DNA from: Dictyostelium discoideum
Taxonomy: Eukaryota
DNA length: 64,000 nucleotides
Direction of reading: 5' to 3'
Assembly (NCBI GenBank): GCA_000004695.1
Contig: CM000153.2
Location: forward strand, 3,808,001 to 3,872,000
Positions within the stretch are counted from its first letter, which is position 1, and each line of letters starts with the position of its first letter. Shown in pieces: positions 34,242-42,119 of this stretch. A program made the translations under genes and the position numbers. The notes under the pieces were generated by a model, which ran no database searches, was not told the origin of the DNA, and saw only the letters and a list, made by a program, of their open reading frames with translations.

Positions 34242-34245
<4 letters not shown>

Positions 34246-34530
34246 ATTCTACAAATACAATTTCGTTTTGTTGTGTTTCATGTGATGTATCATTATATGG
34301 CGATGTGGTTCAAGGATTTGAAACATTATTACCATGTAACCATACATTATGTAATGAATGTGAAAAAGAATCATTAGCAGTTAAATCTTGTAAATCATGT
34401 TGTTCAGACATTTTATATCATTTTCCAAATAAATATTTAAGACAATTATTAATTTTAAATCAAAAACAATTACAACAACAACAACCTCAACTTAATCAAC
34501 AACATCAACAACAAATTCCACAAGAACAAG

Positions 34531-34592
<62 letters not shown>

Positions 34593-36554
34593 ACAAAAAA
34601 ATCAATTTCAATATATTCAGAAAAACGTCATAGTTCAGAAGCAAATCAAAGTAGTTTTGTAATTTCAAAATCTAGCGATAAAATAGGAAAATCACCATCG
34701 CCTTCATCATCGTCATCATCATTTTCATCATCACCGCAATCATCACAAAGCGCAGAAGGTTCAGAGATTGATAGTAATGAAGAAGAGAATGATATTTGTA
34801 ATCAACATAATAAACAATTGATATCGTATTGTTTAGATTGTAATTGCAATATTTGTCAAGATTGTATAGATCAAATTCATAAAGAGCATAGAGAATTACA
34901 AATTGATAGAAATACGATCAATCAATTTGTTTTAGATGAAAGATCATACTTACAACAACAAAATCAAGTTCATAACCCATATTTAACACCTCAACAACAA
35001 CAACAACAACAAAATTCATCATTAGATCATCAGCTATTTGAATTGGTTAAACAGATAAAGTTATCAAAAGTTTTTAAACAACAATCTATTAATCACTACT
35101 CTGGGGAGTTTAAAAAGGTTCAAGACGAATTCCATGTCTATAAACAATTGATTGAAGAGCGTAGATTATATTTATTGAAATTCATAGAGAATCAATTCAA
35201 ATCCGAGCAATTACAATTGGATGAGCAAATTAAAACCTTGGAAAATCAAGCAGATATCATAAAGAAATGTTTAACAGATATTAAATCCCAAGATAAAAAT
35301 AAATTAAAAATAGTTAGAAACCTCTCAAAAATTAATATTAAATTAACGAAAATGGTAATCAATTCAAATAATGTAAACAATTATCAATATATTCCACCAT
35401 CGATTGCAAATCCAGATTTAGTTTCAATGTCTGATAAATTAAGATCATTGGGTAGAATTAATTATTCATTTAAAGATAATCAACATTTATTGGCTTTATC
35501 AAAGGAGAGATCATTCCAATTCGATATTGATTCAAATCATTTCCTTCCCTACAGTGAGCACCATCATGATAGTAATCCAATGAAAGATACTATACTTGCT
35601 TATAAAGTTATATCCTATCATGATATTTCCAATGGTAATCAAGTTAATAATTGTTTAGTCACAATTTCGGAGAATCAAAAATCTGGACAAATTGAAATCT
35701 CAAAACTTCAAGTGAAATCAAATCAAATTCAATCGAAAATAGTTGTACCATTGAAATCGTTTAAAACAAATTGCTCAGCTTGTTTCACAAGTAGTTTTAA
35801 CTCTGCCGCCACTTCTTCCACCACTGTTGCGAATTATGAAATGTTTTTAATTGGTGGTATCAATCATAAATCTAAAGATCTTTTAAAAGAAATAGATAAA
35901 TATAATTTACAAACCAACAAATACGAACCAATGGTTGCAACATTATCAAAACCTAAATATGGTTGTTTAACTTGTTTCGATGGGTCTCGTTATATTTATA
36001 TCTTTGGTGGTATTTTCAAATCACTACAATTAAGTAGAGCTTTCATTGAAATTGAAAGATTGGATATCACCACCAATAAATGTGAAATCATATCAAAGTT
36101 TCAAGATCCTGATCTTTTAGATTTCAGTAAAAGCCCATTAATTGCATGTCATTTTCATTCAAACTTTATTTATTACTTGACCAATAAATCATTCAAAAGA
36201 TTTAATCTTTCCAAGAATACTTTTGAAAATTTGGATTTCCCAAATCCAACACTATATGGCGATGTTGCCAATATTAATGGTTCAATATCTTTGATGTACG
36301 ATTCTGGTAGATTCATTCTATTATTTAATGATAATATTTTCCTATTCCCACTCTCTCAATTAAAACCTACTGATGTTGCTCCATTGAAATGGTATCCAAA
36401 ATATACTAAAATTAACTCTACTGATTTCACCTCCTCTTCAATGTCTTGCTTAAATTTAATTGGTTCAAAACAATCTTGGCAACAACAATCTCAAAATCCT
36501 TCTTATTTAGTTCAAAACTTACATGGTTTATTAATTTATAATGAAACTCATTAA
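34242..36554 (+). CDS. TRIM-like protein: N-terminal Cys-rich RING-like finger, B-box zinc finger, poly-Q, coiled coil, C-terminal Kelch-type beta-propeller repeats
   Basis: Single 770-codon ORF. The RING-like cluster is CCVSCDVSLYG...LPCNHTLCNECEKESLAVKSCKSCC. The B-box is CNQHNKQLISYCLDCNCNICQDCIDQIHKEHRE. (CAA)22 at 34529-34593 encodes poly-Q. Kelch-like blades are MFLIGGINHKSKDLLKEIDKYNLQTNKYEP and RYIYIFGGIFKSLQL. Confidence 0.7.
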
Positions 36555-37014
36555 AAAAAAAAGAAAAAAAAAAAAAACAACAACACCTGTATATAAATTC
36601 TTTTTTTAAATTACCTCTATCATATCATTTATTTATAATAAAATAAAAATTATGTAAATATCATAATTTTTTTTTTACTCAAAATTAAAAAATTATATAA
36701 TGTTAGGGAATTTTTAAAAATTTGTGATCAAAATAATGGAAAATACTAAATGCCATATCTCATTTTTAATATTTTTTATTTATTTATTTTTTTAGTTTTT
36801 TAAAATTTGTAATAAAAACAATTTAAAATAAAAAAATTTAATAATCTTTTTTATTATAATAAATTTAAAATTAAACAAAAATTATTAATTTTAATATTAT
36901 TTTTTTTTTTTATTTTTATTTTTTAAATACACTAAAATAAAAAAAATAAAAAATTGGATATTTTTAAAGTTTCAATTTAAACTACTAAATTTTTAATAAT
37001 TAAATTTTGTTTGA

Positions 37015-37042
<28 letters not shown>

Positions 37043-37047
<5 letters not shown>

Positions 37048-37398
37048 TATTATTATTTCGTTTTGTTTTATAATCAATTGGTACCAATGAATTGTCTACT
37101 CTCTTTGCAGCCGATACTACTGCATTACATAGTCTTAACCAGTGAAGTTTATTTACAGTTGGTAATAAATCTCTAATTGAATAATATTCATCTGTACCAA
37201 AGTTTGACTTTTTTGACAATCCAAAAGGACCAAGAAAGCAAAAAGTAAAGCATATTCTACAACATATCTCGCTTTTGTGGGATAATCTGGTAACATGTCC
37301 ATATCTTTTCCGGTTCTACTAATCATCTCTCTTAATCTATTTGCATCTATACCTAAAAAATAACTATTTACTAATGTTGATAAATTTGTTTCATCCAT
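37043..37398 (-). CDS. Small hypothetical protein (~100-110 aa) whose coding frame switches -1 midway (either a 53-nt intron 37208..37260 or a 1-nt homopolymer indel); product unidentified
   Basis: The ATG is at 37398-37396. Frame a reads MDETNLSTLVNSYFLGIDANRLREMISRTGKDMDMLPDYPTKARYV... with good AT3 codon bias. From about 37260 downstream the codon bias moves to the -1 frame (SNFGTDEYYSIRDLLPTVNKLHWLRLCNAVVSAAKRVDNSLVPIDYKTKRNNNK*, stop 37045-37043). The segment is distinctly less AT-rich than the surrounding spacer. Confidence 0.45.
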
Positions 37399-37827
37399 TT
37401 TTTTCTATTACTTTCTTTTTTATTGTTTTTTTCTTTGAGACAGCTGTGAAGTAAGTAAGCCAATATAAAATGTTTGTTTTTTTCTTGTGTTTTTTTTTTT
37501 TTTTAATTAATTATATTATATTATTAAAAATAAAAAAAAATAAAAAAAAAAGAAAAAAAAAAATTATTTCCAATCCTCTTTCCTATTTCATTTTTTTGAA
37601 TAATTCCCATTTTTGGAACTTTATTTTTAATAATATAAAAATACACCCCGCCGAAAATTTTATAAAATATTTTCAATATTTTTTTTTAAGTTTAAAAAAT
37701 TTTCCCCCTTTTTTTTTCAATTTTTTATTTTTTTTTATTTTTTTTTTTTTTTTATTTTATTTATTTGTTTATAAATTTTTTTTTGTGTGTATTTATTTCT
37801 TTATTGAATTAAAAATAATACCACACA
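37399..37827. promoter_or_regulatory. Divergent promoter region between the small frame-discontinuous gene (minus) and RFC1 (plus)
   Basis: A 429-bp AT-rich spacer between two divergently oriented start codons. It contains a short GC-containing island (gagacagctgtgaagtaagtaagcc, 37437-37461) and long T-runs. Confidence 0.3.
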
Positions 37828-40163
37828 ATGGCAAAAAAAGCAAATAAAGAACAATCACCAAAAAAAACTTCACCTACATCATCACAAGGCTCGACTGCGA
37901 CAAAGAAAAAAACGAAAACATCTGAACCAGCAGGAACTGTGAGTAAATAAATTTATCATTCCAATCTTTTTATAAACATTTTTTAATTTTTTTTTTTTTT
38001 TTTTTTTATATATATAAAAAATAGGATATTAGAAATTTCTTTGCAGTAATTAAACCATCAACTAGTGGTGAAAATGTTAAAAATGATTTATTTAGCAAAG
38101 CAAAAGAGGATAGTAATAAAGAATTTTCATTGTCAGACAAAGAAAATGATGATGTTAAAATCATTAGCAACAAAAAAGATACAACTAACAATGATAAAAA
38201 GAAGCCATCAGAAAATAAATCACCTAAAAAGAAAGAACCATCAAAATCTATTGATTTAACTTCTGATGAAGATAAAAGTTCAAGTGAAGAAGATAAAAAG
38301 AAACCATCTTCATCTTCTTCTAAAAAGAAACCATCATCTTCATCTTCTTCTTTACCAAATAAAAAAAAATCAACATTAAAAAGATTAAAGAAAAAAAGAG
38401 ATGATTCTTCATCATCATCATCATCATCAGAGTCAGATTTTGATTCAGGTTCAGATTTAGATATAGAATCAATAGACCAAAAACCAAAAACGATAACAAA
38501 AAAAAAGAATTTAAAAAGAAAATCAAAACCAGATTCATCCTCGTCAAGTGAGGATGAAACTAAACATCAAAAAGATAAGAAAATTAAATTAAAAACACCT
38601 GAAAAAAAAATAGAAGAACCTGAAAAGAAAGTAGAAATACCATCATCAACTTCATCAATATCATCTTCTCAAAAGAAAATTGTTTATTCATTTGAAGATT
38701 CAGAAGATTCAGATGCTGATAAACCGATTCCACCTTCTAAAAAACCTTCAGCAGTAGTTGTAAATGCACCCTCAACAAAAACATTTGAAAAGAAAAAAGA
38801 AAATACTGATATACCACCATCACCATCAAAAACAAAAGAAACAACTTCAACAACTACTGATACAAAACCCATAAAATCACCAAGTAAATCAAATAAAAGT
38901 ACAACACCAACAACAACAACACCAATAACAACAGAAAAGAAAAAAATAGCACAACTTGAATTTGAATCACCAATAGTTTCAATAACAGCAATTGATACAG
39001 AAAAGAAAAAAGATGGTAATAAAGATAATAAAAATAAGGAAAAAGATAAAGATTCATCACCATTTGATGAAATGGAAATTGAGGAATCAAAATCCAAAAC
39101 CATTATGCCAAATAATAATAATAATAATAAATCAAAAGAATCATCAAGTTCAACTACAAATAGTAAAAATAATACATCAATGAATGATGATTTAATATTT
39201 GATGATTTTGCGTTTTCACCAATTAAATCAGGTTCAAATAAAACAACTCCATCTAAATCAACCTCTTCTCCATCTAAAGAAACTACACCAATTAAAACAA
39301 GATCAAAAACTGTTGAATCTAAATTTGATGATGATTCAATATTTGATTCTCCTGATAAAAAAACTACAACTACCACTGCCTCTAATACAAAAACTAAAAC
39401 ACCTCCATCAAAGAAAGATAAATTCAATCATGATATTATTTTCGAGGAAAGTGATACACCACTTAATCGTGCTATTGAAGATTCTATTGTAAAGAGATCA
39501 TTGTCAGGCTTAAATAATATTGATAAAGATTCAAAAACTACAACAACAACAACAACAGAAAAAAAACAAAAACTAAAATCAGACCCATTTGATACTGAAA
39601 CCGAAGAAGAAACAGAAGATGAAGGTGATGAACCATTATATAAACAACAATCATCATCATTTGGAAGTGGTTCAATTAATCCAACCGCCACACCAACTAC
39701 ACCAACAAAGAAACCAGCAGCCACATCAACAAATGCAACACCAACTAAAAAACCAAATCCATTTATGTACATGAATGGAAGACCAACACCACCAAATAAA
39801 GGTTCAAAACCAAGACCTCAGGGTAAAGAAAATTGTCTTAGAGGTAAAGTATTTTTGGTTAGTGGTGTAATGGATTGTTTTGAAAGAGATGAAATGCATG
39901 ATATCATTAAAAGATGGGGTGGAAAAGTTGCAAAATCTGCCGTTAAACTTTTGAACTATTTAGTTAGTGGTAAAGATGTTGGTGAAAAGAAGTTAGAGGG
40001 TGCTAAAAAAGTTGGTGCTAAAATTATTACTGAAGATGAATTTTTAGAAATGATCAATAAAACTTTACCAAAACCAGTTTCGACAACTGAAACTACTCAT
40101 ATTTCCTTACCAACTCCAACTCCAACTCCAACTCCAACCCCAGCATCATCATCATCATCATCA

Positions 40164-40198
<35 letters not shown>

Positions 40199-42119
40199 AA
40201 ATTCCACAGGAATAAAGGGACCATCATTACCAGTGAGATCTGGTAGTGGTGGAAGTTCAACAGGAATTAAAGGACCATCATTACCTGTGAGATCTGGTAG
40301 TGGTGGAACGACATCATCATCACCACCTTTAACTTTTACGTCATCACCTCCAACTTCAACAACCACCGCAACAACAACAACAACATCATCACCACCAATT
40401 AGTATGGCTTCGGTAATTGTGCCAAAATCAATTTCAACAATACCAAAAGGACATGATATTTTATGGGTAGAAAAATATAGACCAAAAGTAATTGAAGATA
40501 TAGTTGGTAATCCAGGTATTTTCCAAGAGTTTGGTAAATGGTTAGATCAATGGAACTCTACAGCACCAAGAGATGCAAGTAAAAAGAATGCAGTTTTATT
40601 ATCAGGACCACCAGGTATTGGTAAAACTTCAGCAGCTTTATTAATTTGTAAGCAAAAAGGCTTTGAAGCAATTGAATTGAATGCAAGTGATGCAAGAAGT
40701 AAATCAGAGATTAAAAGATTATTATCTGGTGTATCAGATAATCAAAACATTACCAAATTCTTTGGTACAACCAATCAAGACACTGGTAAAGATGTACAAG
40801 CCAATAAAAAGATTAAAACTGCCATTATTTTAGATGAAATCGATGGTTCAAGTGGTAACTCAGATCGTGGTGGTATTGCAGAGATCATTGGTTTAATTAA
40901 GAAATCAAAGATGCCATTCATTTGTTTATGTAATGATTACTATAGTTCAAAGGTAACCTCTTTGAGAAACCATTGTATGGATTTGAAATTAAGGAAACCA
41001 ACACTCAATCAAGTCTCCTCAAGATTATTGGCAATTGCAAAACATGAAGGTATGAAAGTGTCCTCCTATATGATCGAAAAAGTTTATACTTCAAGTCATT
41101 CAGATATTAGACAATCTATAAATACCCTTCAAATGATGTCTCGTTCAAAGAGAGATTATAACAATGACAATGTCACTCAAAGCCTTCAAGAGAAAGATTT
41201 CGATATCTCTCCATTCACAGCCGCTGAATTAATCCTTCGTGAAGATAATAGTAATATCAATAAGAAATTGGATTATTTCTTCTCTGATTTCTCTTTGGTA
41301 CCATTAATAATTCAAGAGAACTATTTAAAAACTAGACCTTATGGTGGTGGTAGTCAATCAAAATATAATGATTGTGAATTGATTTCAATGGCCGCCGATG
41401 CATTAAGTGATTCCGATCAATTTGGAAGAGCCATAGGTAAGGAAATGGCTTGGAATTTATTACCAACTTATGGTGTCACCTCTTGTATTATTCCATCGGG
41501 TTATATTAGAGGTAGTCCACCAATGCCATTGTCTTTCCCTTCTTACCTTGGTAAATATTCAAATGCTTCAAAACAACAACGTTTCGTTAGAGAATTACAA
41601 TTACATATGAGATCAACCAGTAATACATTTGTAAATCGTGATGAAACTAGACTTTACTATGTACCAATGTTAAAACATCATTTAATTCAACCTTTGGTTC
41701 AAGATGATAATGATGGTATTGAAAATGTTATCAATGTAATGGATGAATATGGTTTAACTGAAGATGATAGAAATAACATTATCGAACTTTCAACATGGGG
41801 TAAAGAGGATCCACTAAAAGATGTTAAAACTCAAGTTAAATCTGCATTCACTAGAAAATTCAGAAGTACCTCCCATGCAATCTATGATGTTTCATTATTA
41901 TCTTCAAAGGGTTCTGGTGGAGGAGGAACAAATATCGCTGAAGGTTATGAAGAAGTTGAAGGTGAATCTCAAAATCAAATTGAAGAAGAAGATGAAGAAA
42001 CTGAAGAAAAAGATTCTCTTCCAAATTTAGTTAAAAAATCTTCGGTTAAATCAAAATCAGATACAAAACCAAAATCAACAAAATCAAAATCAACAACAAC
42101 AAAATCTAAAAAAAAATAA
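37828..42119 (+). CDS. rfc1: Replication factor C large subunit (RFC1): N-terminal DIRNFF motif, long S/K/T/P-rich linker, BRCT domain, AAA+ clamp-loader ATPase module, RFC1 C-terminal domain; 2 exons
   Basis: Exon 1 is 37828..37938 ([13 protein letters not shown]...SEPAGT), with donor GTGAGT at 37939. Exon 2 is 38025..42119, beginning [12 protein letters not shown] (conserved RFC1 start) and joining ORF 38130..42119 in frame. The BRCT is [38 protein letters not shown]...[14 protein letters not shown]. Walker A is [19 protein letters not shown], and the DEID/sensor region is ILDEIDG. About 1401 aa. Confidence 0.9.
40204..40314 (+). repeat. Direct tandem duplication of a ~55-nt unit within RFC1 linker (encodes [17 protein letters not shown] twice)
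   Basis: acaggaataaagggaccatcattaccagtgagatctggtagtggtggaag followed by acaggaattaaaggaccatcattacctgtgagatctggtagtggtggaac. The differences are synonymous or near-synonymous. Confidence 0.85.

Follow-up and report, generated by a model that had tools for sequence, protein, structure and literature searches.

A one-base deletion probably truncated a small intron-less gene next to RFC1 in the Dictyostelium discoideum reference lineage

Described models of the gene and a distant homolog

The closest described relatives of the small gene analyzed here are three proteins, all labelled Dictyostelium discoideum, which were retrieved when its repaired conceptual translation was searched against 5.8 billion proteins. 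The gene is encoded on the minus strand of a 64,000-nucleotide stretch of D. discoideum DNA (contig CM000153.2, positions 3,808,001 to 3,872,000), referred to here as the window. DDB_G0285929 (P0003), an AX4 hypothetical protein of 81 aa, is identical to the frame-a open reading frame (ORF) 37398..37153 of the window, its annotation ending at the premature stop with no record of an origin in a 118-codon gene. ACTFIW_013107 (P0001, assembly GCA_054859355.1) is an uninterrupted protein of 118 aa with 92% identity to the repaired translation. Its gene is a single exon, like the repaired gene, and is syntenic, being located (L001:6001-6357) between the orthologs of RFC1 and a B-box/Kelch gene; it is intact because the G of codon 56 is present, which is where it differs from the window.

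The third protein, ACTFIT_005613 (P0002, assembly GCA_054883475.1, L002:3001-3356), has the same locus and DNA as the window, the deletion included, and its model spans the frameshift by means of a 23-nt intron, the 110-aa protein being the product after removal of 37230..37208. This intron takes out the conserved motif GPFGLSKK and is therefore an annotation artefact of a gene predictor bridging the frameshift.

Literature searches for DDB_G0285929 and for the run SRR24492913 found no papers, and exact-sequence look-ups of the 81-aa and 58-aa window ORFs in an assembly collection returned no transcript contigs. A 2025 PNAS study (PMC12745789) describes assemblies built from Nanopore and Illumina reads for AX2-214 and for wild isolates; for some of these isolates, deposited as D. 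discoideum, a status as cryptic species or as D. citrinum is proposed. L001 and L002 plausibly come from this project, and the L001 lineage possibly represents one of these cryptic species.

An exhaustive phmmer search with ACTFIW_013107 as the query against 1.84 billion representative proteins results in one distant homolog, P0005, a protein of 119 aa (E = 1.6e-5 in the search of the full library, and 1e-14 in a pairwise BLASTP comparison with ACTFIW_013107). A single uninterrupted ORF (L003:11-370) on a 960-nt Logan contig of SRR24492913 encodes it. The homolog has a similar length, likewise lacks an intron, and shows 30% identity over 99 residues, the alignment covering residues 17 to 114 with the frame unbroken across the site of the deletion. 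It shares with the product of the small gene the pattern GPxGxSKxxNF...I.D.LP...W..C.AV, of which GPxGxSKxxNF is the best-conserved stretch among the window, L001 and P0005. P0005 differs in having an AT-rich non-coding flank, a codon usage with a weaker AT bias and an N-terminal third that can barely be aligned.

Single-sequence and profile word-indexed searches gave no further members beyond these four proteins. A 408-aa repeat protein (P0004) from a 60-kb ENA metagenome contig, with a Pfam DUF5691 match, matches residues 60 to 106 of the small protein three times, its repeats of about 70 aa resembling this region with 35% identity over 46 aa. The resemblance could mean that a helical module is remotely homologous, or it could be a chance match inflated by the repeats, and the protein was set aside as an unproven remote similarity.

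The profile search of the conceptual translations was run against Pfam, and no family was matched at E<=10 by any of them, by ACTFIW_013107 or by P0005. PDB sequence searches gave only noise at E of about 0.5 (1yoc, septin-2). The initial annotation had pointed to a weak similarity to SRP9-like proteins; SRP9 is absent from the Pfam results at this threshold, and we therefore dropped the suggestion. It is equally absent from the PDB sequence and fold matches. The protein is modelled as a small helical orphan with an all-helical domain that lacks a known fold match.

Reading frames and the missing base of codon 56

The coordinates of the features at the locus are collected in Table 1. The divergent neighbour of the small gene is RFC1, as had been proposed from the letters of the window alone, with a Pfam RFC1 C-terminal domain (2.7e-49) as well as BRCT and AAA domains, and the B-box/Kelch gene lies downstream in convergent orientation. 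The frame-a ORF runs on the minus strand from the ATG at 37398 to a stop at 37153-37155. On the same strand a second frame, shifted by -1, stays open from 37316 down to its stop at 37043-37045, with zero ATG codons. A tblastn search of the intact ortholog against the window splits accordingly, with residues 1 to 49 matching 37398..37252 and residues 42 to 118 matching 37276..37046. Both ORFs and this split match agree with the pattern first noticed from codon bias, in which the coding signal follows frame a and then continues in the -1 frame to 37043.

Table 1. Features of the small-gene locus in the window (positions are those of the window).
Feature	Position	Strand	Evidence or remark
Footprint of the putative ancestral single-exon gene of 118 codons (DDB_G0285929 locus)	37043..37398	-	Alignment to L001:6001-6357; tblastn of P0001
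Translatable ORF, 81 aa and stop	37153..37398	-	Identical to P0003 (DDB_G0285929, AX4)
Out-of-frame tail of the 81-aa product, 26 codons, LVLLDCQKSQTLVQMNIIQLEIYYQL	37156..37233	-	Comparison of P0003 with P0001
Stranded coding sequence of the C-terminal half (residues 57-118 and stop), -1 frame, no ATG	37043..37231	-	Alignments
1-nt deletion site, between two T residues	37232..37233	-	Alignment with L001, GCTTTCT[G]TGGTCC; also in L002
T5 run (plus-strand A5), not the indel site	37240..37244	-	Identical in the window, L001 and L002
Proposed 53-nt intron, an exon part encoding VEYALLFAF(C)GPFGLSKK	37208..37260	-	GC content; conserved residues
23-nt intron of ACTFIT_005613, nested in the 53-nt interval	37208-37230	-	P0002 is the 23-nt-spliced product
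TCCCACAA octamer, codons (ta)T CCC ACA A(aa), Y-P-T-K	37275..37282	-	Chance DUSE look-alike

The footprint of the gene measures 356 nt, one base less than the 357 nt of the intact form with its stop included. In the DNA alignment L001 reads GCTTTCTGTGGTCC at codon 56 (TGT, Cys), where the window and L002 read GCTTTCT-TGGTCC, so that the window lacks one G, the gap falling between 37233 and 37232. This is the sole indel inside the ORF when the window is compared with L001. The single G deletion is a real mutation and causes the switch of frame. The initial annotation had offered a single-base indel, or a recent pseudogene, as one of two explanations and placed the indel in the T5 run. It was right about the kind of lesion and about the presence of the run, and wrong about the place, the deletion lying 8 nt downstream of a run that is unchanged. 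The continuous ORF that it expected from a repair does exist, with 118 codons instead of about 117.

An error of sequencing or assembly, with a true genome that holds the G and an intact 118-codon ORF, had also been considered. Single-base indels are frequent among assembly errors and the region is T-rich, but the context of the deletion (CTGTGG to CTTGG) is not a homopolymer. Moreover, L002 is an independent chromosome-scale assembly of a different length (a chromosome of 5,576,411 bp, against 5,450,249 bp for the AX4 chromosome), which matches the window without a single mismatch over 6.3 kb and shows the identical deletion. Since the deletion is repeated there, it is not a sequencing error, and we consider this explanation very unlikely.

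The reading that we favor, and regard as well supported by the comparisons with L001, L002 and P0005, is that a small intron-less gene, ancestrally of 118 codons and divergent from RFC1, was truncated by the deletion of one G in the lineage of the window. The ancestral state would have been an intron-less protein-coding gene of that length, transcribed divergently from RFC1, and the G of codon 56 would have been lost in the lineage of the AX4 reference and of one further independently assembled genome. Translation from the ATG at 37398 would then proceed through 55 native codons and 26 out-of-frame codons to the stop at 37153, the out-of-frame tail including the peptide SQTLVQMNIIQLEIYYQL. The conserved C-terminal half (37231..37043) would be left untranslatable in the -1 frame, where no ATG is available. 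The tryptic peptides encoded by this stranded half include SNFGTDEYYSIR, DLLPTVNK and LHWLR. By parsimony, the deletion appears to be derived in the lineage of the window, since the frames of L001 and P0005 are uninterrupted.

A (AAT)n/(TAA)n microsatellite at 37014-37057 begins at the stop codon of the small gene. This 3' UTR repeat is length-polymorphic and is 15 bases shorter in L001.

The intron-like interval and the DUSE-like motif

The other explanation given at first for the change of frame was a mini-intron of 53 nt (GTAGAA...AAAAAG). The length of this interval stood, whereas its GC content is 32.1% and not about 34%. If it were spliced out, the product would have 100 aa with the junction ...ARYV|SNFG, as compared to 110 aa after the 23-nt splice adopted in the GenBank annotation of ACTFIT_005613. 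Both intervals have GT...AG boundaries and the removal of either restores the frame, but the same is true of dozens of other GT/AG pairs, and little weight can therefore be put on these boundaries.

An intron would be expected to have a GC content far below that of the exons and to encode no residues that are conserved in homologs. The 53-nt interval is instead exon-like in composition, the flanking exons having 28-30% GC and the intergenic DNA 10-15%, and the two proposed introns together span 32-35%. The genuine first intron of the adjacent RFC1 gene (37939..38024), which follows a short first exon (37828-37938) and serves as the local comparator, is 86 nt long, has the form GTGAGT...AATAG with a T-rich part before the acceptor, and contains 10.5% GC. 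Neither donor (GTAGAA, GTCCTT) nor the acceptor CAAAAAAG fits this pattern. The interval furthermore encodes V47, A50, G57, P58, G60, S62 and K63, which are invariant in the window, L001 and P0005, and thereby the GPxGxSK part of the best-conserved motif of the family, and in the L001 ortholog it is plain in-frame coding sequence. The shorter version, at 23 nt, is below the length of any functional spliceosomal intron that we know of in Dictyostelium. The mini-intron reading is contradicted by the composition of the interval and by the conserved residues that it encodes, and we see only a very slim chance that either the 53-nt (37260..37208) or the 23-nt (37230..37208) interval is spliced out.

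The octamer TCCCACAA, which fits the DUSE consensus as used in the initial annotation, is present, although at 37282-37275 and not at 37277-37270, five bases away. It could mark a DUSE-driven small non-coding RNA gene embedded in the locus, but matches to WCCCAYAA are at or below chance frequency in the window (6 found, 9.1 expected from shuffles), the motif falls within conserved codons, and the L001 ortholog, which reads CCCCACAA, has a different first base. An Rfam scan of 36600-38000 gave no match, the best E value being 3.4 and all scores far below the gathering scores. The octamer is coincidental, a caveat that had been raised along with the motif, and a non-coding RNA gene at this place is scarcely credible.

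Divergence between the halves and the fate of the product

Synonymous divergence between the window and L001 amounts to 0.137 for the Kelch gene and to 0.081 for RFC1, thus about 8-14%, roughly 10%, and the raw intergenic mismatch is 6.7% (36600-36899) and 8.3% (37500-37799). The two halves of the small gene differ from each other against this background. Substitutions number 13 in 167 aligned positions (7.8%) of the 5' half and 2 in 184 (1.1%) of the 3' half (Fisher p=0.0025), a strong rate heterogeneity within the 118-codon gene (37232-37398 versus 37043-37231), with an N-terminal half that evolves about as fast as intergenic DNA. The comparison of ACTFIW_013107 with P0005 follows the same division, with 10 identities in the 55 N-terminal residues and 23 in the 63 C-terminal residues, so that the frameshift removes the part of the protein with 23 of the 33 positions identical in P0005. 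Since the halves differ in rate as they do in family identities, the part stranded by the frameshift is the conserved core.

Had the 3' half been under neutral drift since the split from L001, 7-12 substitutions would be expected on the branch of the window, at a neutral divergence of 0.08-0.13, whereas the observed number is at most 2 (P=0.0005 to 0.02). This deficit suggests that the lesion is young relative to the split, the deletion being recent compared with the separation from the lineage that has the intact gene. The age may even be very recent, the data excluding only ages above roughly 55-90% of the branch.

The near identity of the stranded half to L001 could also indicate that it is still decoded. 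A nearly full-length protein would result if ribosomes shifted by -1, or if transcription slipped, in the T-rich tract, and such decoding would predict the same conservation. The surroundings of the lesion are indeed T-rich (CTTTTTGCTTTCTTGGTCCTTTTGG). However, a scan for slippery sites (X XXY YYZ, in register) in the zone of frame overlap, 37316..37153, found none, and the canonical heptamers AAATTTA (37387) and TTTTTTA (37360) are both located upstream of frame-b stop codons. L001 and L003 use a single continuous ORF and show no conserved frameshift signal, and a young deletion accounts equally well for the conservation of the 3' half. Recoding of this kind is thus highly improbable. We give equally little credence to the related idea that the stranded half is decoded by a non-canonical -1 shift or by slippage of the RNA polymerase in the T-rich tract immediately upstream of the lesion, which, if true, would explain the 2 differences in 184 positions relative to a lineage that is about 10% diverged at neutral sites.

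It is also conceivable that the truncated protein of 81 aa is functional itself, either because the N-terminal half is sufficient or because the new tail is useful. The ATG, the promoter region and the first 55 codons are intact, and both dictyBase and GenBank annotate the ORF as a gene. Against this, the N-terminal half is poorly conserved, with 10 of 55 residues identical in P0005, and differs from L001 at 7.8% of its DNA positions, like intergenic DNA, while the conserved core is lost. We regard a functional 81-aa protein as unlikely, though less so than the other alternatives.

Returning to truncation by the deletion, three features expected of a pseudogene are found at the locus, namely an intact ortholog in synteny (L001:6001-6357), a lesion that is real, being present also in L002 and in a non-homopolymer context, and the removal of conserved parts of the protein by this lesion. 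The best-supported reading of these sequences is that the reference lineage would make solely the 81-aa DDB_G0285929 product, which is devoid of the conserved C-terminal half. We infer that this product lacks the ancestral function and that the locus would represent a young unitary pseudogene or a null allele. The pN/pS ratio relative to L001 is about 0.5, calculated from only 15 substitutions, compared to 0.10 and 0.25 in the neighbouring genes, indicating that the small gene is weakly constrained overall, as would fit a gene that can be lost. Because of this weak overall constraint, it is chiefly the distant homolog that supports the loss of a functional gene.

The two assemblies that bear the deletion are nearly identical here. 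They probably have a recent common origin, both likely going back to one isolate through laboratory culture, so that the deletion could be confined to this stock instead of characterizing the whole species.

For the databases, the annotation of DDB_G0285929 should be flagged as a probable frameshifted remnant of a 118-codon gene, and the 23-nt intron should be dropped from the ACTFIT_005613 model. With its intact form ACTFIW_013107, the gene represents a tiny orphan family of putative helical proteins, which has one distant relative so far. The case suggests that the laboratory reference of D. discoideum can hold null alleles of genes whose counterparts in close relatives are intact, which matters where comparative work counts such genes as "absent" or "short". 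Otherwise this appears to be a lineage-specific frameshift of an ordinary kind, affecting a small orphan gene, and its value lies in the correction of the annotation and not in a new biological question.

Further very short introns in the annotation set of GCA_054883475.1 are possibly similar artefacts. Both neighbours of the small gene have low-complexity features that are typical of Dictyostelium and indel-rich relative to L001. The RFC1 ORF (38130-42119) contains a duplicated segment of 17 protein letters and a long N-terminal low-complexity sequence rich in Ser, Thr and Lys, and the B-box/Kelch protein (34242-36554) has a long polyQ tract.
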